NCBI GenBank assembly: GCA_035569495.1 | Contig: DATMMX010000012.1 | Location: 176,602-240,601, forward strand | DNA: 64,000 nucleotides | Reading direction: 5' to 3' | Origin: Candidatus Angelobacter sp. | GTDB lineage: Bacteria; Chloroflexota; Dormibacteria; Aeolococcales; Aeolococcaceae | Notes under the pieces: generated by a model | What the model saw: the letters and a program-made list of their open reading frames with translations, nothing else | Told to the model about the DNA's origin: nothing | Database searches by the model: none | Made by a program: the position numbers and the translations under genes | Part shown: positions 9,512 through 43,455 of the stretch, piece after piece | How positions within the stretch are numbered: the stretch's first letter is position 1 | Layout: each line of letters starts with the position of its first letter

Positions 9512-9543
9512 CCACCCCCGCGCCCCGCGCCACGACGCCCCGC

Positions 9544-10419: not shown

Positions 10420-10439
10420 TGTGGCCAGGTGGTGGGGGG

Positions 10440-11171
10440 TCAGCGCAGGCTGAGCCCACCATCGCAGGCGACCACCTGCCCGGTGACGTAGTCCGAACGC
10501 ACCAGCCCGAGGCACAGCGTCGCGACGTCGTCCGGGATGCCGCTGCGCTGCAGCGGCGCCATCACCTTGACCGCGTCGCGCAGGTCGCTCCAGTCCGCCG
10601 TCCACGGCGTGTCGATCAGCCCCGGCGCAACCGCGTTGACGCGCACCGTTGGCCCGAGAGCGTTGGCGAGCAGCAGGGTGAGGTGGTGCACGGCCGCCTT
10701 GCTCGCCGCGTAGGGAATCGAGCTGCCCGAGGGACGCAGCCCCGCCAGCGAGCCGACGTTGACGATGCAGCCGTCGCCGCTCTCGCGCAGCGCGGGAATC
10801 GCCGCCTGGGTGACCTGCCAGGTGCCGATCACGTTGACGTCGAGGATGCGGTGCCACACCTCGGGGGTGACGGCGTCGAAATCCGTGTGCGGGATGCGCA
10901 CGGTGGTGCCGGCGTTGTTGACCAGCACGTCGAGACGCCCGTAATGACTCAGCGCCTGGGTGACGATGGCGCGCGCGTCCCGCGCGTCGGCGACGTTGCC
11001 GCGCACGTACAGCGCGTCGGGCAGGCTCGCCGCCACCGCCTTTCCCGCCTCCACCGACGACGACGAGTTGACCACGACGCGCGCGCCCTCGGCGGCGAAG
11101 GCCCGCGCCACCGACTCGCCGATGCCGCTCGACGACCCGGTGACCAGGACGACCTTTCCCTCGATCTGCAT
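10440..11171 (-). CDS. SDR family NAD(P)-dependent oxidoreductase
   Basis: Start MQIEGKVVLVTGSSSGIGESVARAF. Rossmann motif TGSSSGIG, NNAG motif, and catalytic YAASK (Y-x3-K). Confidence 0.85.
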   Translation of the reverse strand: MQIEGKVVLVTGSSSGIGESVARAFAAEGARVVVNSSSSVEAGKAVAASLPDALYVRGNVADARDARAIVTQALSHYGRLDVLVNNAGTTVRIPHTDFDAVTPEVWHRILDVNVIGTWQVTQAAIPALRESGDGCIVNVGSLAGLRPSGSSIPYAASKAAVHHLTLLLANALGPTVRVNAVAPGLIDTPWTADWSDLRDAVKVMAPLQRSGIPDDVATLCLGLVRSDYVTGQVVACDGGLSLR

Positions 11172-27344: not shown

Positions 27345-27420
27345 CCAGTTCTCCGGTTGGGGGGGTTGGCCGTCCGGCCGGGCGTGGGGGCGCCCGGCCG
27401 GAGGCGATGGGTCAGATGGG

Positions 27421-30400
27421 TCAGAAGCCAGGGGCGCCGCACTGGCCGGCCCGCGCACCGCTCACGGTGTTGGGCGCGCCGTCGTTGATCGGCGCCGGCG
27501 CGTTGCCGCTGCAGCTCAGGCTGCCCTTGATGCTGTTGTGCTCGATCTCCGGCGCGCCGTTCTCCGCGTCGACGGCGCTGCCGGCGAGCACGTTGTTGTT
27601 GACGGTCACCGCGCCCTTGATCGACGGGTTGCCGCCGACCTCGAGACCGCCGGTGTTGCCGTTCAGGGTCACTCCGCCGTTGATGCTGTTGCCCGCGCAG
27701 GGCATCGCGGTGTCGTCACCGTTGCTGCCGATCAGCACGAAGCCGGTGCTGTTGCTCACCTGCATCGAGCTGCCGACGCTGCTGAGGCAGACGGTGAGCA
27801 GGTGCGCGCCGTTGGAGGTGAGGCCGCTGCCGATCGTCGAGTTGACGATCGACACCGACGCGCCACCGCTGACGCTCACGCCGCCGCTGATGCGGGCGCC
27901 GTTGATGCAGGCCGAGCCGCCGCTGATGGTCAGGCTACCGGCGATGCGGGTGTTGTAGACGACCGCGCAGCCGGTGTTGACATCGATCGAGCCGGTGCTG
28001 GGCTGGAAGGTGTTGGTCTGGCCGCTGTAGGCGGCGCTGATGGTGTGCGCACCCTGCTGCAGGCTGCTGGTCGTCCACTGCGCCTGTCCGTTGACCAGGG
28101 TCACCACCGCGGTGTTGGTGCCGTCGACCGCGAAGGTCACCGTGCCCGCGGGCGTCCCGCTCGACGGCGGCTGCGGCGCCACCGTTGCGGTGAAGGTGTC
28201 GGGCGAGCCGAAGGTGGGCGAGGTGGTGCTCGCCGTCACCGTGGTCGTGGTCGGCGCCGGGCCGACCTGCAGGGTGAACGCCTGGGTGCCGTCGCTGCCC
28301 ACGCCGTTGTGGGCGGTGAAGGTGATGTGGTACGTGCCGGCCGTGCCCGTGGCGGGCGTGCCAGCCAGCGTGCCGGTGCCGTCGTGGTTGTCGGTGAAGG
28401 TGACGCCGCTGGGCAGCGCACCGCTCTCACCCAGGCTCGGGATCGGGTAGCCACGGGTGGTGACGGTGAAGGTGCCCGATGCGCCGACCTGGAACTGCGT
28501 GTGGTCTGCCGAGGTGATCGCGGCAGCCTCGTTGACGGTGAGCGTGAAGCTCTGCGTCGCGTCGCCGCCGACGCCGTTGTGCGCCTTGAAGCTGATGTGG
28601 TACACGCCGCCGGTGCCGGTCGCGGGGTTGCCGCTCAGCGTGCCGGTGCCGTTGCCGTTGTCAGTGAAGCTCACGCCGCTGGGCAGCGTGCCCGTCTCGG
28701 TGAGGCTCGGCGCCGGGAACCCGGATGTGGTGACGGCGAAGCTGTTCGCCGAGCCGGCGGTGAACGTCGTGTTGTTGGCGCTGGTGATCGCGGCGGGCTG
28801 GTCGACGGTCAGCGTGAAGGACTGCGTCCCGTCAGTACCGACGCCGTTGTGCGCCGTCAGCGTGATCGGGTAGGTGCCGCCGATGCCGGCGTTGGGCGTG
28901 CCGCTGATCTTGGCGGTGCCGTCGCCGTTGTCGGTCAGGGTCACGCCGCCCGGCAGCGCGCCGCTCTCGCCGATCGACGGATGCGGGTAGCCGCGCGTGG
29001 TGATCGGGAAGTTGCCCGCCTGTCCGGTGGTGAAGGTGGTGTGGTTGGCGCTGGTGAACGCGGATGCCTCGTCCACGGTCAGCGTGAAGCTCTGCGTGCC
29101 GTCACTGCCGACGCCGTTGTGCGCGGTGATGGTGATCGGGTAGACGCCGCCCGTGCCGGTCGCGGGCGTGCCGCTCAGGGTGGCGGTGCCGTCGTGGTTG
29201 TCGGCGAAGGTGACACCGCTCGGCAGCGTGCCGGTCTCGCCGAGCGACGGCGCCGGGTAGCCGCGCGTGGTGACGCCGAAGCTGCCCGAGGCGCCCACGG
29301 TGAAGGTGGTGTTGTTGGCGCTGGTGACGGCCGCGGCTTCATTGATGGTCAGGGTGAAGCTCTGCGTCGCGTCAGGGCCGCTGGTGTTGTGGGCCTTGAA
29401 GCTGATCGGGTAGACGCCGCCGGTGCCCGTCGCGGGCGTGCCGCTCAGGGTGGCGGTGCCGTCGCCGTTGTCGAGGAAGCTCACGCCACTGGGCAGCGTG
29501 CCCGTCTCGGTGATCGCCGGGTGCGGGAATCCACGCGTGGTGACGGTGAAGGTGCCCGCGCTGCCCGCGGTGAAGGTGGTGCTGCTGGCGCTGGTGATCG
29601 CCGGCGCCTCGTTCACCGTCAGGGTGAAGCTCTGCGTGCCGTCACCACCGATGCCGTTGTGGGCGGTGATGGTGAAGGTGTAGACGCCGCCGGTGCCGGT
29701 CGCCGGGGTGCCGGCCAGGGTCGCGGTGCCGTCGCCGTTGTCGGTGAAGCTGACCCCGGTGGGAAGGGTGGCGCCGCCGTCGCTGAGCGACGGATGCGGG
29801 TAGCCGCGCGTGGTGACGCCGAAGCTGCCGGCGGTGCCAACGGCGAAGGTGGTGCTGTTGGCGCTGGTGACGGCGGCCGCCTCGTTGACGGTGAGGGTGA
29901 AGATCTGCGGTGCGGGGCTGCCCACGCCGTTGCTGGCTGTGAAGCTGATCGGGTAGACGCCACCGGTGCCGGTCGCCGGTGTGCCGCTCAGCGTGCCGGT
30001 GCCGTCGTTGTTGTCGGTGAAGGTGACGCCGGTCGGCAGGGTCCCGCTCTCACCGAGCCCCGGCTTCGGGTAGCCGCCCGTGGTGACCGTGAACGTGCCC
30101 GCGCTGCCCACGGTGAAGGTGGTGTTGTTGGCGCTGGTGATCGACGGCGCCTCATCCACCGTGAGGGTGAACGCCTGGGTCGCGTCACTGCCGACACCGT
30201 TGTGCGCCCTGATGGTGATGGGGTACACGCCGCCGGTGCCGCCCGCGGGAGTTCCGCTCAGGGTGGCGGTGCCGTTGTGGTTGTCGACCAGGGTGACGCC
30301 GCTCGGCAACGCTCCCGTCTCACTGATTGCCGCGGGCGGGAAGCCGCTGGTGGTGACGTCGAAGCTGCCCAGCGTGCCCACCGTGAATGTGGTGTTGTTG

Positions 30401-33400
30401 GCGCTGGTGATCCCGGCGGCCTCGTCGACGGTGAGCACCAGGGTCTGGGTCGCGTTGGGGCTCACCCCGTTGTTGGCGGTGAGGTGGATGTTGTAGGTGC
30501 CGCCCGTGCCCGTCCCCGGTGTGCCGCTGATGGTCGCGGTGCCGTCGTTGTTGTCGAGGAAGGTCAGGCCGGTGGGCATGGTGTCGGGCTCGGTGATCGC
30601 GGCGTGCGGGAAGCCCGTGGTGGTGACGTTGAAGCTGCCTGCGGTGCCGACGGTGAATGTCGCCGTGCTGGCACTGGTGATTGCGGGCGCCTGGTCGATG
30701 GTCAGCGTGAACGGCTGGGTTGCGTCGCTGCCCACGCCGTTGGCGGCCTTGAAGCTGATGTGGTAGACGCCGCCGGTGCCCGCGCCCGGTGTGCCGCTCA
30801 GCGTGCCCGTACCGTTGGCGTTGTCGGCAAAGGTCACGCCACTCGGCAGCGCGCCACTCTCGGTGAGCGCGGGTGTCGGTGTGCCGGTGCTGGTCACCGT
30901 GAAGGTGCCCGCGGCGCCGACCGTGAACGTCGTGTTGTTGGCGCTGGTGATCGCGGGTGCCGCGTTGACCTGCAGGGTGAAGCTCTGCACGTCGTCAGGC
31001 GTCTGGCTGTTGTGCGCCGTGATCGACAGCGGGTAGGTGCCCGCCGTGCCCGCCGCGGGTGTGCCCGCGAGGGTTGCGGTGCCGTCGTTGTTGTTGGTGA
31101 GGGTGACACCGCTCGGCAGCGAGCCGGTCTCGCTGATGGTCATGGGCGTCGAGCCGGTGGCGGTGACCGTGAAGGTGCCCGCGCTGCCGACCACGAAGGT
31201 TGTGTGGTTGGCGCTGGTGATGTGCGGCGCGCCGGCAACTGTCAGCGTGAAGTTCTGCGACGCGGCGGGGGCCACGCCGTTGTTGGCACCGAAGGTGATC
31301 GGGTAGCTGCCCGCGGTGGTCGACCCGGGGTTCCCGCTCAGCGTCCCGGTGCCGTTGCCGTTGTCGGTGAAGGTCACGCCGGTGGGCAGCGTGCCCGTCT
31401 CGGTGATCACCATCGACGCTCCGCTCGGGAAGCCGCTGGTGGTGACGCTGAAGGTGTTCGGCGTGCCGATGTTGAAGGTGGTGGCGTTGGCGCTGGCGAT
31501 CGCGGGAGCCTGGTTGACGGTGAGCGTGAAGCTCTGCGTCCCGGGCGAGCCGATGCCGTTGGTCGCGGTGATGGTGAAGGGATACGTTCCGCCGGTGCCC
31601 GCGGCCGGTGTGCCGGCCAGGGTGGCGGTGCCGTCACCGTTGTCGTGGAAGGTCACGCCACTGGGCAGCGTGGCAGCGCCGTCGCTGAGTGTCGGCGTCG
31701 GCACACCGCTGGTGGTCACGGTGAAGGTGCCGGGCGCGCCCACGGTGAACGTCGTGCTGTTGGCGCTGGTCACCGCCGCCGCCTGGTCGACGGTGAGGGT
31801 GAAGCCCTGGGTCGCGTTGGAGCCGACGCCGTTGGACGCGGTGATGGTGAAGGGATACGTCCCGCCCTGGCCCGCGCCCGGTGTGCCGGCGAGGGTGGCG
31901 GTGCCGTCGCCGTTGTCGTGGAAGGTCACGCCGGTGGGCAGGGTGGCGCCGCCGTCACTGAGACTCGGCGCGGGGACGCCGGTGGTGCGCACCGTGAACG
32001 TGCCCGGGCTGCCCACCGTGAAGGTGGTGGCATTGGCGCTGGTGATCGCCGGCGGCTGGTCGACGGTCAGGGTGAAGCTCTGCGTCCCCTGGCTGCCGAG
32101 GCTGTTGTTCGCGGTGATGGTGAACGGATACGTCCCGCCCTGGCCTGCGGCCGGTGTGCCGGCGAGCGTTGCGGTGCCGTTGCCGTTGTCGACAAAGGTC
32201 ACGCCGGTGGGCAGGGTGGCGCCGCCGTCACTGAGGGTCGGCTTCGGGAAGCCGAGGGTGGTGACGCTGAAGGTGCCCGGCGTTCCCGTGGTGAACGTCG
32301 TGTTGTTGGCGCTGGTGACCGACACGGCCTCGTCGACGGTGAGCGTGAAGGGCTGCGTCGCGTCGGTGCCGATGCCGTTGTGCGCCGTGATGGTAAAGGG
32401 ATACGTTCCGCCCTGGCCGGAGCCGGGGTTGCCGCTCAGCGTGGCCGTGCCGTCGAGGTTGTCGACGAAGGTCACGCCGGTGGGCAGGGTTGCACCGCCG
32501 TCGCTCAGCGTCGAATGCGGGAAGCCACCGGTCAGCACCGAGAAGCTGCCCGGGGTGCCCACCGTGAAGACGGTGCCGTTGGCGCTGGTGATGCTCGCCG
32601 GCTCGTTGACGGTGAGCGTGAAGGCCTGCACCGAGTCGGAGCCGATGCCGTTGTGCGAGGTGAACTGCAGCGAGTATTGGCCGCCGGTGCCGGCATTGGG
32701 CGTGCCGCTGAGCACGTGCGTCGGCGCGTCGTAGGTGACGCCGCCGGGCAGCGAGCCCGAGGTCAGCGTGATGCTCGGCGCCGGGTAGCCGCGCGAGGTG
32801 ATCGTGAACGTGCCCGGGCTGCCGACGGTGAACGTCGTGTTGTTGGCGCTGGTGATGTGCGGCGCCTCGTTGACGGTGAGCGTGAAGCTCTGGGTGTCGT
32901 CAGGAGTCACGCCGTTGGTGGCGGTGATGGTGAAGGTGTAGACGCCGCCGGTCCCCGTCGCCGGGGTCCCGCTCAGCAACCCGCCGCTGCTCAGCGTGAC
33001 GCCGTTCGGCAGGGTGCCGGTCTCGCTGAACGTCGGCGCCGGGTAGCCGGCCGCGGTGACCTGGAAGCTGCCCGCGGAGCCCGCGACGAACGTCGCGTGG
33101 TTGGCGCTGGTGATGTGCGGGGGCTGATCGACAGTGATCGACGCGTTGACCGTCTGGCCGTCGATGGTGGTCGGCACGCCGTCCACGCCGCCGGTGGCGC
33201 CCGCGGTGTACGTCGTGCTCGTCGCGCCGCTCGACAGGGTGCCCGACGTCGAGTTCACCGTCCCCAGCGCTCCGTTGGCGAAGGTCACCGGGATGCCGTC
33301 AGGCAGGTGGTGCGACGGCGCAATGGTCGCACTGGTGTTGGTGTGGTCGAGGTCGGCGGTGATCGTCGAGGTCTGGTTGACCAGGATGGTGCTCGGCGAC

Positions 33401-34794
33401 GCGGTGCTGGTGAGGATCTGCCAGGGGCTGACCGTGATGTTGCTGGACGCAGCGGTGGTTGGGCCCGCGTTGACGCCCCACCAGTCGTTGGTGGCGTTCG
33501 CCGAGCCGGGGCCGCTGGGGACGAAGTAGGCCTGGTTGGCGGTCGTCGCCGTGTTGTTGTACAGACGGCTGTAGTGCATCGTCAGCACGCCGGCCTGGTC
33601 GTTGAAGATGGCCCCGCCGTGGCCGGCGTTGGTGCCGCTGCCGGTCGCGGAGTTGCCGGTGAACGTCGAGCCGGTGACGGTGATCGTGCCGGCGTTGGCG
33701 AGCGCACCTCCGTCGGAGTTGGTGGCGGTGTTGCCGGTGAACGTGTCGCTGGTCACCGTCATCGTGCCACCGGTGTTCTTCACGGCACCGCCGCGGCCGC
33801 CGGTGTTGCCGGTGAACGACGAGGTGCTGATGCTGAGCGAGCCCGCGCCGCCCTGCTCCACGGCGCCGCCGCTGGCGGTCGTCGAGTTGGTGCCGAAGCT
33901 CGACCCGGTGATGCTTGCGGCAGGGGAAGTGGCGGTTCCGGCGAACTTGACCGCCCCACCGCCGCCCGCGGCGCTGTTGCCGGTGAAAGTCGAGCTGCTG
34001 ACCGACAGGGTCGGCGAGCCGCCACCCAGCGTCTCCTGGTCGATGGCACCGCCCACCGAGGCGCCGGCGGAGTTGTTGGTGAACGTCGAGCCGCTCACTG
34101 TCACGGCGCCGTACACCTGGCTGATGGCCCCACCCGGCGTGGTGGTGGCCGGGCCGTAGATGACGTTGTCGCTGAAGGTGGAGTTGGTGATCGTGGTGTT
34201 GTCGGGCGTGTGCACCGAGTCGAGCACGCCGCTGATCAGCCCGGCGCCGCCGAACTGCGCGGTCCGGCCGCCCGAGACGGTGACCCCCGTGAGGGTGATG
34301 TTCGTCCCGCCGTTGGTGGCGGGGTCGATGTTGAAGACGCGGAAGCAGGTCGACGTCGCCGACGAGGTGCACGTGGGCGGCTGCAACGCGTGGATGGTCG
34401 TGCTCGCCATGCCCGCACCGTTGATGGTCAGCGACTGGCCGCCGCTGGGTGCGACCTGAAGCTCGCCGAGGGTGAGGTTGTAGGTGCCCGACGGCACGGT
34501 GATGGTGTTGGTGCCACCCGCGTTGTTGCTCGCCTCGATGGCCGCCCGCAGGCTGCAGGTTCCCGCCGTGTTGCAGGTGGTGCTGTTGCTCGGCGTGACG
34601 TGGAGATCGAGAGTGGTGTCGACCGTGAAGTTGGTCGCGTTGGCAACCAGGGTGTGGGAGAGCACACCGAAGAGACCTCCGCCGAGAGCGAGGCCGGACG
34701 CGGCGACCATTGCCAGGCGGCGTGGCTGCAACCACCGCCCGACGCGTCCCGGCCGCGAGCGACCGGACTGAGCCGTCGTGCTTCTGTGCTTCAT
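27421..34794 (-). CDS. Giant (2457-aa) secreted adhesin-like protein: CSLREA/beta-helix N-terminus, about 18-20 tandem Ig-like domains (PF05345-like), Big_3-like domain, C-terminal Gly/Asn/Ser-rich region
   Basis: Strong RBS GGGAGGAGAG before the ATG at 34794. Signal peptide present. CSLRAAIEASN motif. Repeated TFT/SFT-GN-S beta-helix rungs. Then 88-aa units ...ITSANNTTFTVGSAGTFTVTTGGYP.P.L.ESGTLPSGVTF.DNGDGTATLSGTPA.GTGGVY..TITA.NGVGSD.TQSFTLTV... repeat about 18-20 times. Confidence 0.85.
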   Translation of the reverse strand: MKHRSTTAQSGRSRPGRVGRWLQPRRLAMVAASGLALGGGLFGVLSHTLVANATNFTVDTTLDLHVTPSNSTTCNTAGTCSLRAAIEASNNAGGTNTITVPSGTYNLTLGELQVAPSGGQSLTINGAGMASTTIHALQPPTCTSSATSTCFRVFNIDPATNGGTNITLTGVTVSGGRTAQFGGAGLISGVLDSVHTPDNTTITNSTFSDNVIYGPATTTPGGAISQVYGAVTVSGSTFTNNSAGASVGGAIDQETLGGGSPTLSVSSSTFTGNSAAGGGGAVKFAGTATSPAASITGSSFGTNSTTASGGAVEQGGAGSLSISTSSFTGNTGGRGGAVKNTGGTMTVTSDTFTGNTATNSDGGALANAGTITVTGSTFTGNSATGSGTNAGHGGAIFNDQAGVLTMHYSRLYNNTATTANQAYFVPSGPGSANATNDWWGVNAGPTTAASSNITVSPWQILTSTASPSTILVNQTSTITADLDHTNTSATIAPSHHLPDGIPVTFANGALGTVNSTSGTLSSGATSTTYTAGATGGVDGVPTTIDGQTVNASITVDQPPHITSANHATFVAGSAGSFQVTAAGYPAPTFSETGTLPNGVTLSSGGLLSGTPATGTGGVYTFTITATNGVTPDDTQSFTLTVNEAPHITSANNTTFTVGSPGTFTITSRGYPAPSITLTSGSLPGGVTYDAPTHVLSGTPNAGTGGQYSLQFTSHNGIGSDSVQAFTLTVNEPASITSANGTVFTVGTPGSFSVLTGGFPHSTLSDGGATLPTGVTFVDNLDGTATLSGNPGSGQGGTYPFTITAHNGIGTDATQPFTLTVDEAVSVTSANNTTFTTGTPGTFSVTTLGFPKPTLSDGGATLPTGVTFVDNGNGTATLAGTPAAGQGGTYPFTITANNSLGSQGTQSFTLTVDQPPAITSANATTFTVGSPGTFTVRTTGVPAPSLSDGGATLPTGVTFHDNGDGTATLAGTPGAGQGGTYPFTITASNGVGSNATQGFTLTVDQAAAVTSANSTTFTVGAPGTFTVTTSGVPTPTLSDGAATLPSGVTFHDNGDGTATLAGTPAAGTGGTYPFTITATNGIGSPGTQSFTLTVNQAPAIASANATTFNIGTPNTFSVTTSGFPSGASMVITETGTLPTGVTFTDNGNGTGTLSGNPGSTTAGSYPITFGANNGVAPAASQNFTLTVAGAPHITSANHTTFVVGSAGTFTVTATGSTPMTISETGSLPSGVTLTNNNDGTATLAGTPAAGTAGTYPLSITAHNSQTPDDVQSFTLQVNAAPAITSANNTTFTVGAAGTFTVTSTGTPTPALTESGALPSGVTFADNANGTGTLSGTPGAGTGGVYHISFKAANGVGSDATQPFTLTIDQAPAITSASTATFTVGTAGSFNVTTTGFPHAAITEPDTMPTGLTFLDNNDGTATISGTPGTGTGGTYNIHLTANNGVSPNATQTLVLTVDEAAGITSANNTTFTVGTLGSFDVTTSGFPPAAISETGALPSGVTLVDNHNGTATLSGTPAGGTGGVYPITIRAHNGVGSDATQAFTLTVDEAPSITSANNTTFTVGSAGTFTVTTGGYPKPGLGESGTLPTGVTFTDNNDGTGTLSGTPATGTGGVYPISFTASNGVGSPAPQIFTLTVNEAAAVTSANSTTFAVGTAGSFGVTTRGYPHPSLSDGGATLPTGVSFTDNGDGTATLAGTPATGTGGVYTFTITAHNGIGGDGTQSFTLTVNEAPAITSASSTTFTAGSAGTFTVTTRGFPHPAITETGTLPSGVSFLDNGDGTATLSGTPATGTGGVYPISFKAHNTSGPDATQSFTLTINEAAAVTSANNTTFTVGASGSFGVTTRGYPAPSLGETGTLPSGVTFADNHDGTATLSGTPATGTGGVYPITITAHNGVGSDGTQSFTLTVDEASAFTSANHTTFTTGQAGNFPITTRGYPHPSIGESGALPGGVTLTDNGDGTAKISGTPNAGIGGTYPITLTAHNGVGTDGTQSFTLTVDQPAAITSANNTTFTAGSANSFAVTTSGFPAPSLTETGTLPSGVSFTDNGNGTGTLSGNPATGTGGVYHISFKAHNGVGGDATQSFTLTVNEAAAITSADHTQFQVGASGTFTVTTRGYPIPSLGESGALPSGVTFTDNHDGTGTLAGTPATGTAGTYHITFTAHNGVGSDGTQAFTLQVGPAPTTTTVTASTTSPTFGSPDTFTATVAPQPPSSGTPAGTVTFAVDGTNTAVVTLVNGQAQWTTSSLQQGAHTISAAYSGQTNTFQPSTGSIDVNTGCAVVYNTRIAGSLTISGGSACINGARISGGVSVSGGASVSIVNSTIGSGLTSNGAHLLTVCLSSVGSSMQVSNSTGFVLIGSNGDDTAMPCAGNSINGGVTLNGNTGGLEVGGNPSIKGAVTVNNNVLAGSAVDAENGAPEIEHNSIKGSLSCSGNAPAPINDGAPNTVSGARAGQCGAPGF
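28242..33117. repeat. Degenerate tandem repeat, 264-bp unit (Ig-like domain array) inside the giant gene
   Basis: An 88-aa periodicity is visible in the protein and as periodic antisense ORFs (28040.., 28457.., 29423.., 30080.. and others). Confidence 0.7.
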
Positions 34795-34870
34795 GGCCTG
34801 TGCTCTCCTCCCGCGCTGGCGGTGTGTCCCGTCGCCGCCTGGCGTGGCGAAACCGAATGCGAACCGGGGT

Positions 34871-35398
34871 TTAGGATCTGGCTGGGAAGATGCCCTGCAG
34901 GGCGATGCAGAAACTCAACGTGAGGTAGGGCATCATGTTGTTGTGCGGCAGGCTGGCGCCCGTGATGGACAGGGCAGCTGGGTTCATCTGAACATTGGCG
35001 GGTGTGGTGTAGAGCTTCTGCTGGCCGCGCTGGAATGGCGACGTCGACCACACCTGCCCCGCCGGGCTGTTGCTCGTACCCGTCGCGTTGTTTGCCTGGG
35101 CGTTGTGGCTGTGCGCGGCCATCTCGCTCTGCAGCAGCGTCACGGTCTGCTCCCCGCCGACCTCGCCGAGATCACGCAGGCTCAGGCCGTTACCCTGGCC
35201 GAAGTTCATCGGCGCCGAGCCCTGCAGGTTGGGCAATGCGAAATTGCTCTTCCCGTCGCCGCCGTACGTCGTGCCGAGCAGGGAGAAGAGCGCGGTGTTC
35301 TGCGAGATGGGCATGAGCTGCCCATTGCACATCGCCCAGCCGGCGGGAGCGAAGTTGAAGCCGAAGATGCGAATCTCAGCGACGAATGGGTTGGCCAT
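34871..35398 (-). CDS. Phage tail-collar domain protein (MdpB / T4 gp12 collar-like), paralog 1
   Basis: 175 aa. RBS GGAGGT. Sequence MANPFVAEIRIFGFNFAPAGWAMCNGQLMPISQNTALFSLLGTTYGGDGKSNFALPNLQG matches the tail-collar fold signature (FAG.FAP.GW..C.G.LL.I..N.ALFSLLGTTYGGDG...FALPDLRGR). Confidence 0.8.
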   Translation of the reverse strand: MANPFVAEIRIFGFNFAPAGWAMCNGQLMPISQNTALFSLLGTTYGGDGKSNFALPNLQGSAPMNFGQGNGLSLRDLGEVGGEQTVTLLQSEMAAHSHNAQANNATGTSNSPAGQVWSTSPFQRGQQKLYTTPANVQMNPAALSITGASLPHNNMMPYLTLSFCIALQGIFPARS

Positions 35399-35415
35399 TT
35401 TCTACAGACCTCCGC

Positions 35416-35913
35416 TCAGTTCCGGCTCGGGAAGATGCCCTGGAGGGCGATGATGAAAGGCAGCACCAGGTACGGCGACATGTTCTCGTGAGGCTGGCTG
35501 CCACCGGCGTTGGCCACGGCTGCGGGCGCCATCGTCGTGTCCGGCGTGGCCGCGTACGCCGCGGAGAGCTGGGTGGCCCAGAAGTTCCCGTTGGGCGAGC
35601 CCTGGTCGGCCGCCTGCGAGCCGGCGTTGGGAACGTGATTGTGCGCCGGCATCTCTTGGATGGTCAGGGTGTGGGCGGCTTCACCGCCGGCTTGGCCCTG
35701 GACAAGCCCGTTGCCCATGTGGAAGGGGATCCGGCCGCGCAGGTCGGGTAGTGCGAAGTTGACCCGCCCATCGCCACCGTAGGTGGTCCCCAGGAGCGAG
35801 AAGAGGGCTTGGTTCTGGTTGATGGGCAACAGCCCTCCGTCGCAGAACGCCCATCCCTTGGGCGGGAAGTTGAAGCTGATGACCTTGATCTCGCCGAGGA
35901 ACGGTTCACTCAT
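35416..35913 (-). CDS. Phage tail-collar domain protein (MdpB-like), paralog 2
   Basis: Internal start MSEPFLGEIKVISFNFPPKGWAFCDGGLLPINQNQALFSLLGTTYGGDGRVNFALPDLRGRIPF. RBS GGAGAAG. The ORF to 36117 is an over-extension. Confidence 0.8.
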   Translation of the reverse strand: MSEPFLGEIKVISFNFPPKGWAFCDGGLLPINQNQALFSLLGTTYGGDGRVNFALPDLRGRIPFHMGNGLVQGQAGGEAAHTLTIQEMPAHNHVPNAGSQAADQGSPNGNFWATQLSAAYAATPDTTMAPAAVANAGGSQPHENMSPYLVLPFIIALQGIFPSRN

Positions 35914-35938
35914 TGCGCTGGCTTCTCCGGATTGCCGG

Positions 35939-36442
35939 TCACGTCGGCGACGGGAAAACGCCGAACAGCGACAGGATGAAGTTGATGACCCCGAAGGGCA
36001 CCATGTTGTCGTGCGGCTGGCTGTTGCCCGCTCCACCAAACGCGGTTGGCGCCATGACGGTGCCGTCGTTGGTCGCCGCGTACTCGGTGTAGGTCGGGCT
36101 GGCGGCCCAGAACCCATTGGTCGGACTGCTCGCGCCCTGGTTGTTGGTCGACGCGCTGGCCGTGTGGGGATGAACCGGAAGCTGCGAGGTGGTCAGCGTC
36201 ACCTGCTCCACGCCGCCCGTCTGGGCGATGGTGAAGCCGTTGCCCTGGTGCAGGGGGATGCGGCTGCGCAGGTCCGGCAGCGCAAAGGTGCTCTGGCCGT
36301 CGCCTCCGTAGGTGGTGCCGATCAGGTTGAACAGGGTCTCGTAGTTGGAGATCGCCAGGAGCGAGCCGTCACAGAAGGCCCAGCCCACGGGCGCGAAGTT
36401 GCCCGCGAACATGCGGATCTCGCCGACGTATGGCTGGCTCAT
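35939..36442 (-). CDS. Phage tail-collar domain protein (MdpB-like), paralog 3
   Basis: 167 aa. RBS GGAGGA. Sequence MSQPYVGEIRMFAGNFAPVGWAFCDGSLLAISNYETLFNLIGTTYGGDGQSTFALPDLRSRIPLH. Confidence 0.8.
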   Translation of the reverse strand: MSQPYVGEIRMFAGNFAPVGWAFCDGSLLAISNYETLFNLIGTTYGGDGQSTFALPDLRSRIPLHQGNGFTIAQTGGVEQVTLTTSQLPVHPHTASASTNNQGASSPTNGFWAASPTYTEYAATNDGTVMAPTAFGGAGNSQPHDNMVPFGVINFILSLFGVFPSPT

Positions 36443-36774
36443 CCGTCATCCTCCGAAGGCGCCTGGTCGGTGCGCCTGCTGAATACGGCTTCGAGCTGCA
36501 GCCCTGCGGCGTCGCGTCCGATGGGGACGAGGAAGAGTTGCAGCGCGCCGAGCACGGGGTGGTCCAGGTCGTAGGTACGCTGCACCGGCGGCGTCTCCAC
36601 GGGGAGCCGGAAGTGGAGCGCGAACTGCTCGGTTCCCGGGGAGGTGGGCCCATCGACCGTCTCGAAGAGCACAGCGGGGACGGTGACCACGTCGCTGACG
36701 TGGATGGTGAAGGTCGAGCCGACCTGCTCGACTAGGTCGGCCTTGGTGTGCAGCTTCTGCGTTGCGATGCTCAC
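36439..36774 (-). CDS. Small hypothetical protein co-transcribed with the tail-collar genes
   Basis: About 111 aa. Likely GTG start with a strong upstream AAGGAGGA. The stop overlaps the paralog-3 start by 4 nt, and the start overlaps the GNAT stop by 4 nt. No recognisable domain. Confidence 0.45.
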   Translation of the reverse strand: MSIATQKLHTKADLVEQVGSTFTIHVSDVVTVPAVLFETVDGPTSPGTEQFALHFRLPVETPPVQRTYDLDHPVLGALQLFLVPIGRDAAGLQLEAVFSRRTDQAPSEDDG

Positions 36775-37307
36775 GGGTTCTGCCGTCCTCCTTGTGTCGG
36801 CTGCTTGTCGCCCACCACCCGCTCCATGAGGATGTAAAGGCCACGCTCCTCGACGGGCACGAAGCCGAGCCGCTCATAGAGCCGGCGCGCCCCGTCGTTG
36901 AACATCTCCACGTGGAGGCGCATGGGCAGGCCGCGCTGTTCCGCCTCCTCCATCAGCTCGCGCGCTAGGAGCGTGCCGATGCCGCGGTTGCGGTATGGGG
37001 CGAGGACGGCGATGTCGAGCAGGTGGATCTCGTCGTCGCCGCGCTGCACGTAGAGGCGGCCGACCGGCTCGCCGTCGACCAGGATCAGGTCGAAGTCGGC
37101 GCCCGCGTGGTTGGTGGCGTAGTGGACCGACTGGGCGAAGAACTGCTGGTCGAGGAACGCCTGCTTGGTGGCGTGGTCCCAGTCGACCATGGCCATCTCC
37201 GCGTCGCGCGTGCTCGCGTACACCTCGCGGACGAAGGCTTCGTCTGCCGTGGTGATTGCTCGCAGGCTGACATTCAGACCAGCGGGTGCGTCACTCCTGG
37301 CGCCCAC
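36771..37307 (-). CDS. GNAT family N-acetyltransferase
   Basis: 178 aa. Acetyl-CoA binding motif RNRGIGTLLARELMEEAEQRG (R/Q-x-x-G-x-G/A). Confidence 0.75.
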   Translation of the reverse strand: MGARSDAPAGLNVSLRAITTADEAFVREVYASTRDAEMAMVDWDHATKQAFLDQQFFAQSVHYATNHAGADFDLILVDGEPVGRLYVQRGDDEIHLLDIAVLAPYRNRGIGTLLARELMEEAEQRGLPMRLHVEMFNDGARRLYERLGFVPVEERGLYILMERVVGDKQPTQGGRQNP

Positions 37308-37812
37308 AGACCCCGACCGCCATTTGGCTGCCCCATGTCGCCGCGGTGCCCGCCCTCCCTTTGAGGACCGCCGTCACCACCGTTGCCCGCGCACTATAAC
37401 GCGGGCCTCTCGGCGTGCCAACCACCTCCGAAGACGGAATTGCGGCAGCCACTGTGACGATTTGGGGATGAGCGGCGACTTCTTGCCAGGTTCGGGTTGA
37501 ACCTCTGCAATCAGGAGTATCACGTTGCCGCACGAGCGAGCAGGAAGGCGACGCGATAGCAGCGATCTGACCGGTGGTCAGGGTTCCCGTCAGGAACGAC
37601 CGTAAAAAGTCGTGAAGGCATCGCAACCCAGCCCTGAACGCTCCGATCCCACCACCTCGAACGAGCTTAGCCCGGCTGCCCTCACGCGCAAGCACACACC
37701 CTTGTGGTTCGGCGCAGGAACCGTCTTGCGCGATGTTCGCTTCCCACCTATTATCCGGCGCAATACCCGGCTCCCCCGGGCGACAGGAAGAGGTATTGAG
37801 GGGACGGCCGCC

Positions 37813-40800
37813 ATGAGCGTCCAGCATGTAGAAGCGCGCGTCTCGCTTTGGCGGCGTGCCGTGCACTCGTTGGTGATGGGATCGGTGCTGCTCGCAGCGA
37901 TGTCGGTGGAGATCCTGCAGGGACCGGCCAGCTCGGTTGCCAGCGCAGCCGGGCCCACCCCGGCGTTCGGTTCCCCGGTGGCCTACGCGAATGGGGCCAT
38001 CGCGCTCAACGGCGTCGCGGTCGCCAACGACAAGAACGGCGGCTTCGACATCGTGACGGCGAACGCGACTGCGGGCAACGTATCCTCGCTGCAGCCGAAC
38101 AGGAACTCGGCCGGCGTACCCGACGGCACGTTCGGAAGCGCAGTGCTTTCCACTGCCAGCCCCGGCGTCGTCGCGCTGGCCAGCGGTGACTTCAACGGAG
38201 ACGGCATCCCGGATCTCGTGGTGGCCACGGGCAACAACACGCTGAGCGTGATGATGGGCCAGGGCAACGGGGCGTACGGACCCGTCACCGCACTGCAGAA
38301 CATCCCTGCCTACAACGTCGGCACCCCTCAGGCGGTGTTCGCACGCGTCGCCGACCTCAACGGCGATGGCAAGCAGGACGTGGTGGTCGCGGTGAACACC
38401 GGTTGCGTGTGCCAGGCGGAGATCGCGGTGTGGGTCGCCCTCGGCAATGGTGACGGCACCTTTCAGCCGGGGGCGGAGGTCAACGTCCCCGAAGCCAGCC
38501 TCGGCTCGAATCCGAGCGTCAGCGGCCTGGCCGTGGCGGACGTCACCCACGACGGCAAACCCGACATCGTCGTCGCCCTGAACGACACCGGACATGGGTT
38601 CGACGACGGACAGTTCTGGGTGCTGGTCAACCAGGGCAACGGCACCTTCGCCCAGGGCGTGCAGGCCGGCGACGCGCACGGGATACGCAGCTCGGGACCC
38701 GGCGAGGCGATGGCCTCAGCGGACCTGAACGGCGACGGCGCCGCGGACGTGGTGACAGTCCAGCAGCCGCTGACCGAAGCCTCCCGCGGCATCCACGTCT
38801 TCCTCAACCAGGGAAGCGGCACCTTCTCGACAGGCACGTACATCGCGGACCCCAATCTGACCAACGGAACCACAGCGTCCGGCTCCATCCACAGCATCGC
38901 CATCGTGGACGTCAACGGCGACAAGTTCCCGGACATCGTCACCGCGGTGAGCAGCAACCTCAACGGGAACGGCATCTCCCTCTACGTCAACAACGGTGAC
39001 GGGACCTTCGCCGCCCCAGTCTTCTTCAGCACGCCGGGATTCTCGCCGGACACCATGGCCATCGCGGACGTCAACCAGGACGGCAAGCCGGACTTGGTCC
39101 TGGGCTCGCAGACCAACGGGAACAACCTCCACGTCATGCTCAACCAGACCGGCCCAGTTGGGGGCGACGTCACCGACCCGGAGTCTCGCGGTGGGGGATC
39201 CACCTGCTGGCCGTGCCTCGCCAAGCGCCTCGACAGGGCGCGGAATCGTGGCCGCTTCCCGATCTCCCTTCCGTTTGGCACCTTCTGGCACAGCTTCTCC
39301 GACGTGTACGTCCCGGCGCGCGGATTCCCGCTCGCGGTGACGCAGACGTACAACTCCAGCGACGCGACCGACTACGGGCTCGGCCCCGGCTGGTCTTCCA
39401 GCCTGTTCAGCAAGCTCGTCGTGACCGGAACCAGTCCCAATCAGAGCGTGACGGTGACCGCGGAGAACGGTAGCCAGGTGGTCTTCCATCAGTCGGGCAC
39501 CGCCTGGACGACCGCCCCGCGCATCCAGGCCACGCTGGTGCAGAACGGCGACGGTACCTGGACGTTCACGCGCGGTGGAACCGACACGATGACCTTCAAT
39601 CCGACCGGCCAGATCGTGAGTGAGCAGGACCTCAACGGGAACGTGCTCCGGTTCGCCTACACGGGCGGCCTGGTCACCGGCCTGAGCCATGACGACATGG
39701 CCCACTCGGACGTTCGCTCGCTGTCGATCGTCTGGAACACCGCGACGCCGGCCCACATCACGTCGATCACCGACAACAACGCCGGCCTCAACCGTCAGGC
39801 GGCCTTCACCTACGACACCGATGGCCAGCTCACCGACATCGACTGGACGACCGGCGGTCTGCCCGCCACCGACATCAACGAGCACTTCGAATACGAGACC
39901 AGCAGGCCACTCAGCCATCGCCTGACGGGAATGCGCGACGGGAGAGGGTTCTGGGTGACCCAGGCGTACGACACTCTTGGAAGGGTCACGAGCCAGACGA
40001 TCGACCCGACCGCAAAGGACTCCGGCGGGTTGAACGAAGTCACGACGTACGACTACTCGGTGCCGACCCAGGTCACCGTGACCGACCCCAAGGGCAACCG
40101 GACGACCGACACGTACTCCTACGGCCTGTTGATGTCCCGCACCCTCGGCGTGGGGAGCCCGCAGGCGGCCACGTGGCAGTACAGCTATGACATGTCGACG
40201 ATCGGCCCCACCTCGGTCGCTGACCCGAACGGGCACACCACGCGCCGGCAGTACGACAGTTACGGGAACGAGCTGAGCGTGACCGACGCGCTCAACCATC
40301 AGACGACGACCCAGTACAGCACCGCCGACGCCCCCTTTCACCAGCCGACCACCGTCACCGACGCGCTCGGCGTCATGACGACCTATACCTACGACTCGCG
40401 GCGCAATCTCACGTCCGTATCCACGCCCCTGGTCGGCAGCAGCCCGGCACAGACGCAAACCACCACGTACTACCGCGACGGGACGACCACCCATCCCGAC
40501 GACGTGACGCGCATCGTGGACCCAGGTAGCAATACGTGGTCGTACGGCTACGACGCGTATGGTGACGTGACTTCGGCGAGGGACCCCCTCCAGCACATGT
40601 CCACCAGCACCTTCAACGCGGATGGGTGGCGCACCGCATCGACGACCCCGCGGGGCCACAACGGCTCGTGCAACTGCGCCGCACAGTTCACCACGACATA
40701 CAGCTACACCGACCCGGTGAGCGGACAGGTGAACTATTTCGGCGACGCGCGTGTGGTGACCGATCCTCTCGGCCACAGCACCACGTATGGCTATGATGCG

Positions 40801-42912
40801 CAGCGCAACCTGACCAGCGTCAAGGATGGCGACGGCAACGTCACCTCGTACGCGTACGACGCCGCCGGTCAGCAGACCACTGTGACACGGCCGGACAGCT
40901 CGACGCTGCGGACTCAGTACGCGGCGGACGGCACGACGACCCGCCAGATCGACGGTGCGAACAACGCCACCAGCTACGGCTACGACGCGCTGGGACGGGT
41001 CACCTCGGTGACCGACCCCCTCAACAGAACCACGTCGATGACCTACGACGGCACCGGGAACCGCCTGGCGGTCGTCGACGCCCAGTCGCAGACGACCACC
41101 TACGCGTATAACGCGGACAATCAGGTCACATCGATTCAATACAGCGATGGTGTGACGCCCAATGTCACCAGCATCGCCTATGACGCCGATGGGCAGCGCA
41201 CCGGGATGACCGACGGAACCGGGACCTCCAGCTATGTCTGGGACTCCCTGCACCGGATGACCTCCTCCACGGATGGGGCCGGGAACACCGTGTCCTACGG
41301 CTATGACCTCCGAGGCGAACTGACAAGCCTCACCTACCCGGGCGTGACCACGCCGGTCACCTACACGTACGACCCGGAGGGGAATATCCTCCAGGTCACC
41401 GACTTCTCGGGCTCGACGGCCTACGTCGCCCTCGACTTCAACGGGAACACCCTCAACGTGAGCTTCCCTCGCCCGAGCCAGACGATCGACTTCTACACCT
41501 ACAACAACGCGGATCAACTGACCGGCCAGAGTTTCACGGTGGGCAATCTGACGACGTATGCCTCGCTGTCGTACGCGCGTGACGGGAATGGCCAGGTGAC
41601 CTCCGAGACGGACACCGGTCTGCCAGCACCGGCCGCGCCGACCTACACGTACAACTCGCTGAACCAGCTCTCATCGAGCAGCGGCGCCTCGTACACGTAC
41701 GACGCGGCCGACAATCCTGTGAAGCTGGCCGGCGGGGCCACGCAAGCCTTCAACGCGGGGAACCAACTGTGCTGGGCCTCGCCCGGAGGGGGCACCGGTA
41801 CCTGCACCTCGCCTCCCAGCGGCGCCACCGCCTTCAACTACGACAGCCGAGGGAACCGAACATATGGACCCAGCCCTGTCGGTACTCTTTCCTACGGATA
41901 TGACCAGGCGAACCGCCTCACCGCCGTCAGTCAGGGGCCCACAGCCCAGGTGTCCATGACCTACAACGGTGATGGCCTCCGCATCACCAAGGTATCCGGC
42001 GTGGGTCACGCGATTACAACCCACAACTACGTCTGGGACGTCCACGGAGCCCTCCCCCGCCTCCTCGCCGACGGCACGACCCGCTTCATCTACGGACCCG
42101 GTGGTACCGTCATGGAACAGGTCAACGGCTCCACCGCGTCCTACTTCCACCACGACCAGCTCGGTAGCACCCGCGCCATCACCGACGGCACCGACACCCC
42201 GATCGCCACGTACAGCTACGACGCGTACGGCAACACCGTGGGCTCGACGGGAACCTACACGAATTCCTTCCACTTCGCCGGCGAGTACCTGGACTCGGAC
42301 ACCGGCCTCTACTACCTCCGCGCTCGGTACTACGATCCCAGCACAGCTCAGTTCCTGACCCGTGACCCAGCGGCGCCGACGACGCGGGCGCCGTATGACT
42401 ACGTTGGCGACAACCCCCTAAATGGATCCGACCCCATTGGGCTCGACAGCAATTGCTCCATCTTTGCCTTCTGGGCATCTGACTGGTGCGCACGAGAGGG
42501 TGCTGGTACGACCACGGGTAAAGTCGTGATTGGTGCTGGCGTGGTCGTCGCTGGAGTTGCCACTGGCGGTGTCGCACTCGGCTGGTACGGTGCCGCGGCG
42601 GGCGCTGGTGCCGGAGCAGAAATCGACACCACGACAGTGGTACCGGCGATCGTCAACGACGTGGCGGCGGCGAGCGAGGATGTCGTGCCCACGGTGGGGG
42701 CTGCTGGCGAGGGCCCAATCTCCACGGGTCTTCAACGCCAGATATGTGAGCACTTGATAAAACTCAATGACTACATTCAGAATCCACTCAATAGCGACAC
42801 CACAGGCCGCCTGGCCAACGCCATCAACAACGGACTGGGTAACCCGAACTCGATCTACGAGGGTCGTATCAATCACTTGTTGAGCGAGATAAGGGCCTTC
42901 AACAGTCAGTGA
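37813..42912 (+). CDS. RHS-repeat polymorphic toxin: signal peptide, FG-GAP/VCBS beta-propeller region, YD/RHS repeat shell, DPxGL boundary, novel C-terminal toxin domain
   Basis: ATG at 37813 inside ORF 37612..42912. N-terminus MSVQHVEARVSLWRRAVHSLVMGSVLLAAMS... Six FG-GAP-like repeats (DFNGDGIPDLVVA, DLNGDGKQDVVVA, DVTHDGKPDIVVA, DLNGDGAADVVT, DVNGDKFPDIVTA, DVNQDGKPDLVLG). Dozens of YD repeats (YGYDALGRVTSVTDPLNRTTSMTYD...). The RHS core ends at YYLRARYYDPSTAQFLTRDP...YDYVGDNPLNGSDPIGL. A 165-aa C-terminal tip follows, with a glycine-zipper hydrophobic segment. Confidence 0.9.
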   Translation: MSVQHVEARVSLWRRAVHSLVMGSVLLAAMSVEILQGPASSVASAAGPTPAFGSPVAYANGAIALNGVAVANDKNGGFDIVTANATAGNVSSLQPNRNSAGVPDGTFGSAVLSTASPGVVALASGDFNGDGIPDLVVATGNNTLSVMMGQGNGAYGPVTALQNIPAYNVGTPQAVFARVADLNGDGKQDVVVAVNTGCVCQAEIAVWVALGNGDGTFQPGAEVNVPEASLGSNPSVSGLAVADVTHDGKPDIVVALNDTGHGFDDGQFWVLVNQGNGTFAQGVQAGDAHGIRSSGPGEAMASADLNGDGAADVVTVQQPLTEASRGIHVFLNQGSGTFSTGTYIADPNLTNGTTASGSIHSIAIVDVNGDKFPDIVTAVSSNLNGNGISLYVNNGDGTFAAPVFFSTPGFSPDTMAIADVNQDGKPDLVLGSQTNGNNLHVMLNQTGPVGGDVTDPESRGGGSTCWPCLAKRLDRARNRGRFPISLPFGTFWHSFSDVYVPARGFPLAVTQTYNSSDATDYGLGPGWSSSLFSKLVVTGTSPNQSVTVTAENGSQVVFHQSGTAWTTAPRIQATLVQNGDGTWTFTRGGTDTMTFNPTGQIVSEQDLNGNVLRFAYTGGLVTGLSHDDMAHSDVRSLSIVWNTATPAHITSITDNNAGLNRQAAFTYDTDGQLTDIDWTTGGLPATDINEHFEYETSRPLSHRLTGMRDGRGFWVTQAYDTLGRVTSQTIDPTAKDSGGLNEVTTYDYSVPTQVTVTDPKGNRTTDTYSYGLLMSRTLGVGSPQAATWQYSYDMSTIGPTSVADPNGHTTRRQYDSYGNELSVTDALNHQTTTQYSTADAPFHQPTTVTDALGVMTTYTYDSRRNLTSVSTPLVGSSPAQTQTTTYYRDGTTTHPDDVTRIVDPGSNTWSYGYDAYGDVTSARDPLQHMSTSTFNADGWRTASTTPRGHNGSCNCAAQFTTTYSYTDPVSGQVNYFGDARVVTDPLGHSTTYGYDAQRNLTSVKDGDGNVTSYAYDAAGQQTTVTRPDSSTLRTQYAADGTTTRQIDGANNATSYGYDALGRVTSVTDPLNRTTSMTYDGTGNRLAVVDAQSQTTTYAYNADNQVTSIQYSDGVTPNVTSIAYDADGQRTGMTDGTGTSSYVWDSLHRMTSSTDGAGNTVSYGYDLRGELTSLTYPGVTTPVTYTYDPEGNILQVTDFSGSTAYVALDFNGNTLNVSFPRPSQTIDFYTYNNADQLTGQSFTVGNLTTYASLSYARDGNGQVTSETDTGLPAPAAPTYTYNSLNQLSSSSGASYTYDAADNPVKLAGGATQAFNAGNQLCWASPGGGTGTCTSPPSGATAFNYDSRGNRTYGPSPVGTLSYGYDQANRLTAVSQGPTAQVSMTYNGDGLRITKVSGVGHAITTHNYVWDVHGALPRLLADGTTRFIYGPGGTVMEQVNGSTASYFHHDQLGSTRAITDGTDTPIATYSYDAYGNTVGSTGTYTNSFHFAGEYLDSDTGLYYLRARYYDPSTAQFLTRDPAAPTTRAPYDYVGDNPLNGSDPIGLDSNCSIFAFWASDWCAREGAGTTTGKVVIGAGVVVAGVATGGVALGWYGAAAGAGAGAEIDTTTVVPAIVNDVAAASEDVVPTVGAAGEGPISTGLQRQICEHLIKLNDYIQNPLNSDTTGRLANAINNGLGNPNSIYEGRINHLLSEIRAFNSQ

Positions 42913-42921
42913 GCTCTCAAT

Positions 42922-43401
42922 GTGATTGTGGAGAACCCGATGGACGGATTGTCTCAACCAGCGGACGGACGGCGATTTGTCTTCTCGCGGATTCACAGCC
43001 TGTCATCGTGGCCGACGGACGCGAACATTCCAGGAGAGCAGTTCTGTCTGCTCCTGCTGTGCGGCGATGCTCTACCAGATGCTGCCGCCATTGAGGCATT
43101 CGCGTCGCGCGCTCTAACCCAAGGGATGGTGTATCTATCTGTCTGGGGTAGGGCGCCACACCGGATCGAGGAAGTTGTGGACGAGGTGTACGTCGACACG
43201 GCGGCGGAGGAACGATCAACGCTGGTGACGACGGCACATACCAATCTCGACGAGGCAATAGCATTCTTCGAGAACGACGTTCGACCTCCGAAAGCTCAAT
43301 GTCATCTCTGGTGGGTGGTCGCGGTCGGGGACGATGACGCAGCCGAGAGGACTTTGAGCGCGTTGGAGTCTCGTCGGACCGTGGGGCGGCTTGCGTGCTG
43401 A
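42922..43401 (+). CDS. Putative cognate immunity protein for the RHS C-terminal toxin
   Basis: 159-aa ORF starting 10 nt after the RHS stop, on the same strand. It shares the low-GC composition (about 58% vs about 72%) of the toxin tip. No known domain. The call rests on position and composition. Confidence 0.5.
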   Translation: MIVENPMDGLSQPADGRRFVFSRIHSLSSWPTDANIPGEQFCLLLLCGDALPDAAAIEAFASRALTQGMVYLSVWGRAPHRIEEVVDEVYVDTAAEERSTLVTTAHTNLDEAIAFFENDVRPPKAQCHLWWVVAVGDDDAAERTLSALESRRTVGRLAC

Positions 43402-43455
43402 GTCGAACCTCGTCGCGCGCGACCGTGGCACGGCGCACGAACGGAGAAACCCACC

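Follow-up and report, generated by a model that had tools for sequence, protein, structure and literature searches.

We analysed a window of 64,000 nucleotides (nt) from Candidatus Angelobacter sp. (the window is the whole stretch of DNA; coordinates given without a locus name are positions in it). In it, three tandem genes coding for paralogous proteins with a phage tail-collar domain, collar A, B and C, lie between genes for a GNAT acetyltransferase and a DUF6916 protein on one side and a gene for a giant secreted protein on the other. A survey of related loci showed that these genes belong to a conserved, non-viral cassette, in which the collar triplet is tightly linked to a giant surface protein, a GNAT and a DUF6916 protein. 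The cassette is widespread and apparently undescribed: a literature search with the terms DUF6916, COG4675, PF07484 and tail collar, with subscription journals outside its coverage, found no description of it, and no papers on DUF6916 were found in the full-text literature. Open reading frame (ORF) calls and a Pfam profile search of the translations gave the features listed below, with protein lengths in amino acids (aa).

36771-37307, minus strand: GNAT acetyltransferase, 178 aa (Acetyltransf_1, E=4e-18), core member of the cassette
36439-36774, minus strand: DUF6916 protein, 111 aa (PF21880, E=1.8e-20)
35939-36442, minus strand: collar A with HPH motif, 167 aa (Collar, PF07484, E=6e-29)
35416-35913, minus strand: collar B with HNH motif, 165 aa (PF07484, E=2.6e-27), start ATG at 35913 read from the sequence
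34871-35398, minus strand: collar C with HSH motif and the group-specific insertion G-x-G-L-S-L, 175 aa (PF07484, E=1.4e-27)
27421-34794, minus strand: giant secreted protein with beta-helix and He_PIG regions, 2457 aa, ATG at 34794
24921-27458, minus strand: second secreted beta-helix protein with CSLREA and choice-of-anchor Q, up to 845 aa
37393-37421, minus strand: promoter-like site TTGGCA-17-TATAGT, 10 of 12 consensus matches, about 86 nt 5' of the GNAT start

The first-pass annotation of this DNA had placed the first five genes at 34871-37307, with a collar signature and good ribosome-binding sites for each of three paralogues of about 170 aa, and the Pfam search and the reading of the junctions agreed with it. 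The three collar proteins scored 95-100 bits against a PF07484 gathering cut-off of 24, the DUF6916 protein 73.2 bits against a gathering cut-off of 27 and the GNAT 66.2 bits against an Acetyltransf_1 cut-off of 20.7; as profile matches, the scores of these five proteins cannot be attributed to chance. GGAGG-like ribosome-binding sites were read 5' of the DUF6916, collar A, B and C and giant genes. The GNAT and DUF6916 genes overlap by 4 nt, as do the DUF6916 and collar A genes, which is what had been annotated; the gaps between the collar genes are 25 and 17 nt, and collar C is separated from the ATG of the giant gene by 76 nt instead of the 77 reported. The promoter-like site is a consensus match only, the sole one in 13.5 kilobases (kb), with an average of 0.4 in shuffled sequences. 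A pattern scan of the minus strand from 38000 to 24500 found no terminator-like sites. Downstream, on the same strand, the two beta-helix surface proteins annotated before (2457 and 845 aa) both have signal-like N-termini; the 845-aa gene is probably the last gene of the unit, its membership being uncertain.

Collar cassettes in other genomes

Species-representative genomes were scanned with a DUF6916 alignment, which gave 12 loci from Clostridia, Actinomycetota (including Nocardioides and Solirubrobacteraceae), Acidobacteriota, Verrucomicrobiota, Alphaproteobacteria and Chloroflexota. Nearly all of these loci contained three collar genes and an orthologous GNAT by hidden Markov model annotation, and an all-against-all clustering found a homologous giant adjoining the triplet in 10 of 13 loci. 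Because these loci had been picked through DUF6916, the survey was repeated from collar A, and covered seven long metagenomic contigs as well as three plasmids, from the cultured strains Aminobacter sp. SR38, Paenibacillus sp. 37 and Sinorhizobium meliloti LMB1. The triplet was again directly beside a giant, and GNAT and DUF6916 were present in most loci. When pooled, the surveys yielded 22 loci in which the triplet was complete; they belong to Actinomycetota, Acidobacteriota, Verrucomicrobiota, Chloroflexota, Bacillota and Pseudomonadota. A giant, taken as a protein of at least 900 aa, was adjacent in 20 of the 22, GNAT was present in 19 and DUF6916 in about 19. Neither our own nor the source annotations showed phage modules in the 22 loci.

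The link to giant surface proteins, noticed earlier in the window and proposed there for a check by synteny, thus recurs across six phyla; the neighbouring giant is usually on the same strand as the triplet, sometimes with overlapping genes, across phyla and in both of the gene orders observed. One order is giant, B-A-C and GNAT, with DUF6916 convergent on the other strand and the giant gene ending a few nt from the start of collar B. The other is GNAT, DUF6916, A-B-C and giant, as in the window, L015, L016 and L020, the last with duplicated GNAT and DUF6916 genes. The GNAT and the 111-aa ORF, which the homology search advised in the first-pass annotation identified as DUF6916, recur with the triplet and are therefore members of the module and not incidental neighbours.

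The number of genes varied in several loci. The related contig L015 (7271-18294; collar A 72% identical) contains two complete A-B-C triplets in tandem with GNAT and DUF6916 between them, and a second DUF6916 gene after its giant He_PIG protein. An Acidobacteriota metagenome-assembled genome (L012, 6774-11755) has five separate DUF6916-like ORF matches beside the GNAT gene, and GNAT and DUF6916 are duplicated in L003, L020 and L022; as read from these four loci, DUF6916 and GNAT expand and the collar genes stay exactly three. On the Aminobacter plasmid pSR1 (L024, 13071-14555), the gene for a 494-aa protein with no Pfam match separates collar C from GNAT, and DUF6916 is followed by a SapC-family gene; both may be lineage-specific accessory components. 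Many cassette copies of cultured strains are on megaplasmids. Because a phage-type integrase gene adjoins the cassette (giant, B-A-C, GNAT, DUF6916) in L021 (12162-13328), there is a hint that the module travels on integrative elements.

Proteins of the cassette and their surroundings

The collar proteins matched phage tail-fibre and tail-collar PHROG families, with PDB profile matches to T4 gp12 and the fibre tips 8kec, 9qgo and 9nxk. The alignments with 9qgo and 9nxk span positions 7-145 and 7-157 of the 167-position collar profile, and the H-x-H of the collar proteins aligns with that of 8kec. As the profile alignments cover nearly the whole protein and include the H-x-H, the collar proteins are homologues of the complete C-terminal fibre tip, beyond the 57-residue collar domain. 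His91, His93 and His144 are invariant in alignments of 6 and of 56 sequences, and the H-x-H is a putative axial metal site by analogy with gp12-type tips. Between the H-x-H and a G-G-S-Q-P-H segment, all three collar groups have a hypervariable stretch. All 66 collar proteins from related loci start at the same position, at the collar domain, without an N-terminal shaft or attachment segment, and no signal peptide was found in these 66 N-termini. The second residue is Ala, Ser, Thr or Gly in 60 of them, within the pattern M-(A/S/T/G)-x-P-(F/Y)-x-x-E-I-(R/K). The AlphaFold2 monomer model of collar A was poor (predicted local distance difference test, pLDDT, 48.9) and unusable for fold comparison, which may reflect an interwoven oligomer. 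Collar A, whose NCBI entry carries the name 'tail fiber protein', has at least 8000 homologues at E<=1e-10.

By a neighbour-joining tree and by classification against the window proteins, every core locus has exactly a single A, a single B and a single C. The same A, B and C content was found in 17 loci, the window order being A-B-C. Mean identity between orthologues was 0.61-0.63, compared with 0.49 between paralogues of the same locus, and each group could be told by conserved signatures, such as the G-x-G-L-S-L insertion of group C. The distance matrices of A, B and C correlated with each other (r=0.90-0.93). The sequence comparison thus showed A, B and C to be ancient orthogroups inherited together.

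The GNAT contains the R-x-x-G-x-G acetyl-CoA motif as RNRGIG, and its best PDB sequence matches were AAC(3)-XI, Naa50, RimI and Naa30. In nearly every related locus an orthologue was found, with E-values of 1e-28 to 1e-41 against the window GNAT. The DUF6916 family counts 7389 representatives of 50%-identity clusters, almost all of them standalone proteins of about 100 aa, and the AlphaFold2 model of the window protein (pLDDT 84.6) is all-beta with six strands. No signal peptide was found in GNAT or DUF6916 proteins of any lineage surveyed.

The N-terminus of the window giant resembles a signal peptide, and the protein further contains a beta-helix region, 18 He_PIG stretches, a Big_3_5 domain and a Cys-containing C-terminal region; the He_PIG array is encoded by 270-nt tandem repeats at 28290-32977. 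Over its N-terminal 560 aa, the window giant shares 55% and 30% identity with the giants following the triplet in L015 and L016, respectively. The 845-aa protein, with a CSLREA N-terminal motif and a choice-of-anchor Q domain, is 31% identical to the N-terminal beta-helix region of the giant and ends in six to seven 43-aa repeats (YWLVAADGGIFPFGDA...), encoded by a 129-nt tandem array at 24926-25674. Most of the giants scanned across loci have Ig-like repeats, a beta-helix or both. The repeat types vary by locus (He_PIG, Big_9/cadherin, DUF11/DUF7933, Big_2, SpaA, HYR, beta-helix) and the anchors are appropriate to the lineage, with SLH in Paenibacillus, an autotransporter domain in Sinorhizobium meliloti and Brevundimonas, and signals of the Sec type in the others. 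In 10 loci a beta-helix domain of about 500 aa recurs, usually as the C-terminus of the giant just before the collar genes. An hhalign comparison of this domain with the N-terminal beta-helix of the window giant gave a weak similarity (82% probability, 69 columns).

The genes flanking the cassette in the window are housekeeping genes, with Dus, type III pantothenate kinase (CoaX), esterase and DegV on one side and argH/argG/argD/argB on the other; no phage structural genes were found among them. The guanine plus cytosine (GC) content of the window is 0.70-0.75 and drops to 0.64-0.67 at about 34-44 kb. Because this drop spans the collar cassette and an RHS gene, the stretch 34000-44000 suggests a horizontally acquired accessory island between degV/coaX and the arg genes. 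The RHS gene (37612-42912, plus strand) codes for a 1766-aa FG-GAP/DUF6531/RHS-repeat protein whose C-terminal 150 aa or so have no Pfam match and could be a toxin tip. It is divergent from GNAT, as annotated before; as a conserved partner of the triplet it was rejected, since RHS genes are not conserved neighbours in the other loci of the pooled table. Elsewhere in the window, the gene just past the 845-aa gene (23065-24036, minus strand) codes for a protein of 323 aa whose N-terminus resembles a signal peptide and which had no Pfam or PADLOC match. At 8001-10000 the GC content is 0.80, with a GC skew of -0.26 and an AT skew of +0.40; the ORF at 7775-10462 (minus strand) is ABC-transporter ATPase-like in its C-terminal part, and its Gly/Arg-rich N-terminal third looks over-extended or in the wrong frame.

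Function of the cassette

The reading that we favour, tentatively and at rather less than an even chance, is that the collar proteins have been domesticated as a fibre-tip complex, probably a heterotrimer, and act together with the surface adhesin encoded next to them, with GNAT and DUF6916 as maturation or assembly factors. T4 gp12-type phage proteins form trimers with an axial metal site. In the same way, A, B and C would assemble 1:1:1 as an asymmetric heterotrimer, a stoichiometry read from the gene content, in which the three H-x-H pairs would form the axial metal site and the hypervariable stretch between the H-x-H and G-G-S-Q-P-H would be the distal ligand-binding face. At the cell surface, such a trimer might be a lectin-like tip of the adjacent adhesin or its partner, the asymmetry of the trimer offering a single docking site for a monomeric stalk. 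The dedicated GNAT would modify the complex, the most economical target being the invariant Met-(Ala/Ser)-x-Pro-(Phe/Tyr) N-terminus and the modification N-alpha-acetylation after removal of the methionine, and DUF6916 might be an assembly factor or adaptor. In favour of this target, Ala, Ser, Thr or Gly comes second in 60 of the 66 collar N-termini, and the solved structures nearest to the GNAT include the N-alpha-acetyltransferases RimI, Naa50 and Naa30. The genomic basis for the partnership is that the triplet is almost always directly beside a giant secreted protein, often translationally coupled. A heterotrimeric collar had already been considered in the first-pass annotation, and it gains indirect support from the single A, B and C of each core locus and their correlated divergence, a pattern that an obligate heteromer would leave and that suggests one without being proof of it. 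The broader idea of that annotation, a dedicated non-phage surface or fibre module, possibly with a heterotrimeric collar, is largely borne out by synteny, while the mechanism is inferred.

Several observations weigh against the domesticated fibre-tip reading. It is weakest on topology, as the giants are exported whereas none of the small proteins carries an export signal. Because the collar, GNAT and DUF6916 proteins have no signal peptide and no conserved exporter accompanies them, the surface location of the collar trimer stays an inference; no dedicated exporter conserved in the cassette was found, though the giants cross one or two membranes. Docking is also affected. The C-terminal beta-helix domain of about 500 aa was not detected in the window giant, and no single domain common to all giants, nor a shared docking site, was identified; one conserved docking domain in all giants was therefore rejected. 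The collar proteins are far more conserved than usual receptor-binding proteins, and linkage alone could give both their 1:1:1 gene content and their co-divergence. For the two putative maturation factors, distances correlated poorly with those of the collars (r from -0.2 to 0.34), to which paralogue confusion and saturation may contribute; both genes are missing within 10 kb in L018/L019 and L023, and DUF6916 is often on the opposite strand in related loci. The window GNAT falls below the RimI equivalog cut-offs (TIGR01575/PRK09491, 47.8 vs 86.4 bits and 30.9 vs 173), so by sequence its resemblance to RimI holds at superfamily level only, which counts against N-alpha-acetylation. Comparison of the DUF6916 model with the PDB and BFVD gave no significant fold match that would point to an assembly role, or to the chaperone-like role that the first-pass annotation had considered for a partner of the collars. 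In its strongest form, the reading would have at least six phyla domesticating a phage tip as an obligate asymmetric A-B-C heterotrimer that docks non-covalently on monomeric giant adhesins ('stalk plus tip'), is matured by an N-terminal acetyltransferase and DUF6916 and is exported without a signal peptide; this full version we consider doubtful.

The missing signal peptides, seen for all three small families in every lineage, suit a role in the cytoplasm, where the collar trimer, GNAT and DUF6916 would stay inside, before or independently of export, for example to handle the giant pre-protein or to sense or bind a glycan or metabolite of the cytoplasm, which would then be acetylated. The acetyl-CoA that GNAT enzymes use is cytoplasmic, and the translational coupling with the giant gene would fit a co-translational partner. 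However, the only known members of the fold family are fibre tips that bind receptors outside the cell, a hypervariable distal region is more typical of an exposed binding surface, and we know of no chaperone or regulator with a collar fold, which also counts against this role; we hold it to be unlikely, but the most serious of the rivals. The same proteins might instead form an independent released complex, lectin- or bacteriocin-like, that exits by lysis or another route and binds other cells or polymers, the adjacency to the giant then reflecting a shared accessory island for adhesion or competition with no physical partnership. Signal-less lectin-like bacteriocins and tailocins leave the cell by such routes, and the heterogeneous giant architectures, the low-GC stretch that the window cassette shares with the RHS toxin, the integrase in L021 and the many megaplasmid copies are in line with it. 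This explanation is quite improbable, however: immediate adjacency in 20 of 22 loci and in two gene orders is stronger than co-residence in an island predicts, the cassette has no lysis genes, immunity genes or toxin domains, and the high sequence conservation is atypical of bacteriocin targeting modules.

A phage-related role was considered in two forms. Intracellular collars consisting of the tip only might act as an anti-phage decoy, co-assembling with the collar-bearing fibres of an infecting phage and poisoning them, and both the full-length homology to phage tips without an attachment segment and the cytoplasmic location predicted by sequence would agree with this. The closest phage homologues of the collar proteins, mostly single copy, are however at most 38% identical, which makes co-assembly unlikely, and a decoy leaves the giant adhesin, the GNAT and the three conserved paralogues unexplained. 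PADLOC defence models gave no match with seven proteins of the locus, so a known anti-phage defence system was rejected, and the decoy appears very improbable. A decayed prophage or tailocin fragment with no present function, which the first-pass annotation had already excluded, would explain why the Collar domain is phage-derived and why databases name the proteins 'tail fiber protein'. But the window cassette is not a prophage, because its flanks are housekeeping genes; its ORFs are intact and preceded by ribosome-binding sites, six phyla share the gene set, cellular orthologues being about 62% identical as opposed to 38% or less to phage, and homologues number in the thousands. We therefore rejected a remnant and give it next to no credence.

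Bacteria of soil and rhizosphere very commonly encode COG4675/MdpB 'tail collar' proteins, to which the domesticated fibre-tip reading of this cassette would give a functional context. These proteins are routinely mis-annotated as 'tail fiber protein', and prophage calls are therefore inflated. With the fixed A/B/C triplet and its tie to GNAT, DUF6916 and a giant adhesin, what was a vague annotation becomes a defined system whose predictions can be tested: that the proteins form a complex, that their N-termini are acetylated, that they depend on the adhesin and that they bind glycans. The cassette can be tested because cultured carriers exist, of which Sinorhizobium meliloti LMB1, Aminobacter sp. 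SR38, Paenibacillus sp. 37, Deinococcus ficus and Azospirillum are tractable. If the trimer is indeed the ligand-binding tip of giant adhesins, it would represent a new principle of adhesin architecture and a clear domestication of a phage part, with a bearing on soil aggregation, biofilms and plant association.

Comparison with known systems

Domesticated phage receptor-binding domains are already known as a kind from COG4675 proteins. COG4675 proteins have been detected in soil metaproteomes (PMC5579227), and a genome paper of 2011 noted, for Candidatus Solibacter, paralogues with a 'phage tail collar domain' that are under positive selection (PMC3174227). RhiB, encoded in rhiABC of Rhizobium, is a non-phage COG4675 protein (PMC13133039, PMC6969944), to which MrpB of Microcystis ('microcystin-dependent protein', COG4675) is reported to be highly similar (PMC3328848). 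We found that RhiB is a collar-domain protein with an H-x-H motif (hhalign probability 94%). Unlike the triplet of the window, however, RhiB and MrpB are encoded by single collar genes; the rhi locus is without GNAT, DUF6916 or giant adhesin, and mrp and rhi are under the control of quorum or microcystin signals, which were not seen for the window cassette. That rhiABC might be a diverged collar triplet was rejected, as RhiA and RhiC have no similarity to the collar profile. The five window proteins were all assigned to Collar, DUF6916 or GNAT and do not form an operon of the rhiABC type, RhiA and RhiC having been compared with the collar profile only. MrpC, a CT pilin (PMC12397347), was rejected as a relative for its unrelated fold.

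Among phage proteins, the T4 short tail fibre gp12 (1OCY/5IV5), the long tail fibre 8KEC and the tail fibres 9QGO and 9NXK likewise have a Collar domain followed by H-x-H and a G-G-x-Q-x-H segment. Phage fibres differ in being 200-1000 aa long, with an N-terminal shaft or attachment region, and in being encoded in tail modules, whereas the window proteins begin exactly at the collar domain, exist as three fixed paralogues and lie outside phages. The small minor tail proteins of Microbacterium phages (NoodlelyBoi gp40, 188 aa; Yasuo gp15, 182 aa), standalone collar-type proteins in the phage loci L028 (4899-5465) and L029 (3923-4471), are of similar size, align over the whole length at 35-38% identity and contain H-x-H and Q-x-H-N-N. 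They differ from the window proteins in being single copy, in an N-terminal extension of about 26 aa, helical by sequence reading, and in having no C-terminal G-I-F-P-S tail. Their loci have no GNAT, and the small ORF after the collar gene is not DUF6916, so the small ORFs 3' of phage collar genes were rejected, on comparison, as DUF6916 relatives. The actinophage gene is the last of the tail module, directly after the large tail fibre or spike genes, which parallels the order of giant then collar in the cassettes, and with the standalone protein of the Microbacterium phages there is a natural case in which a tip subunit is provided in trans.

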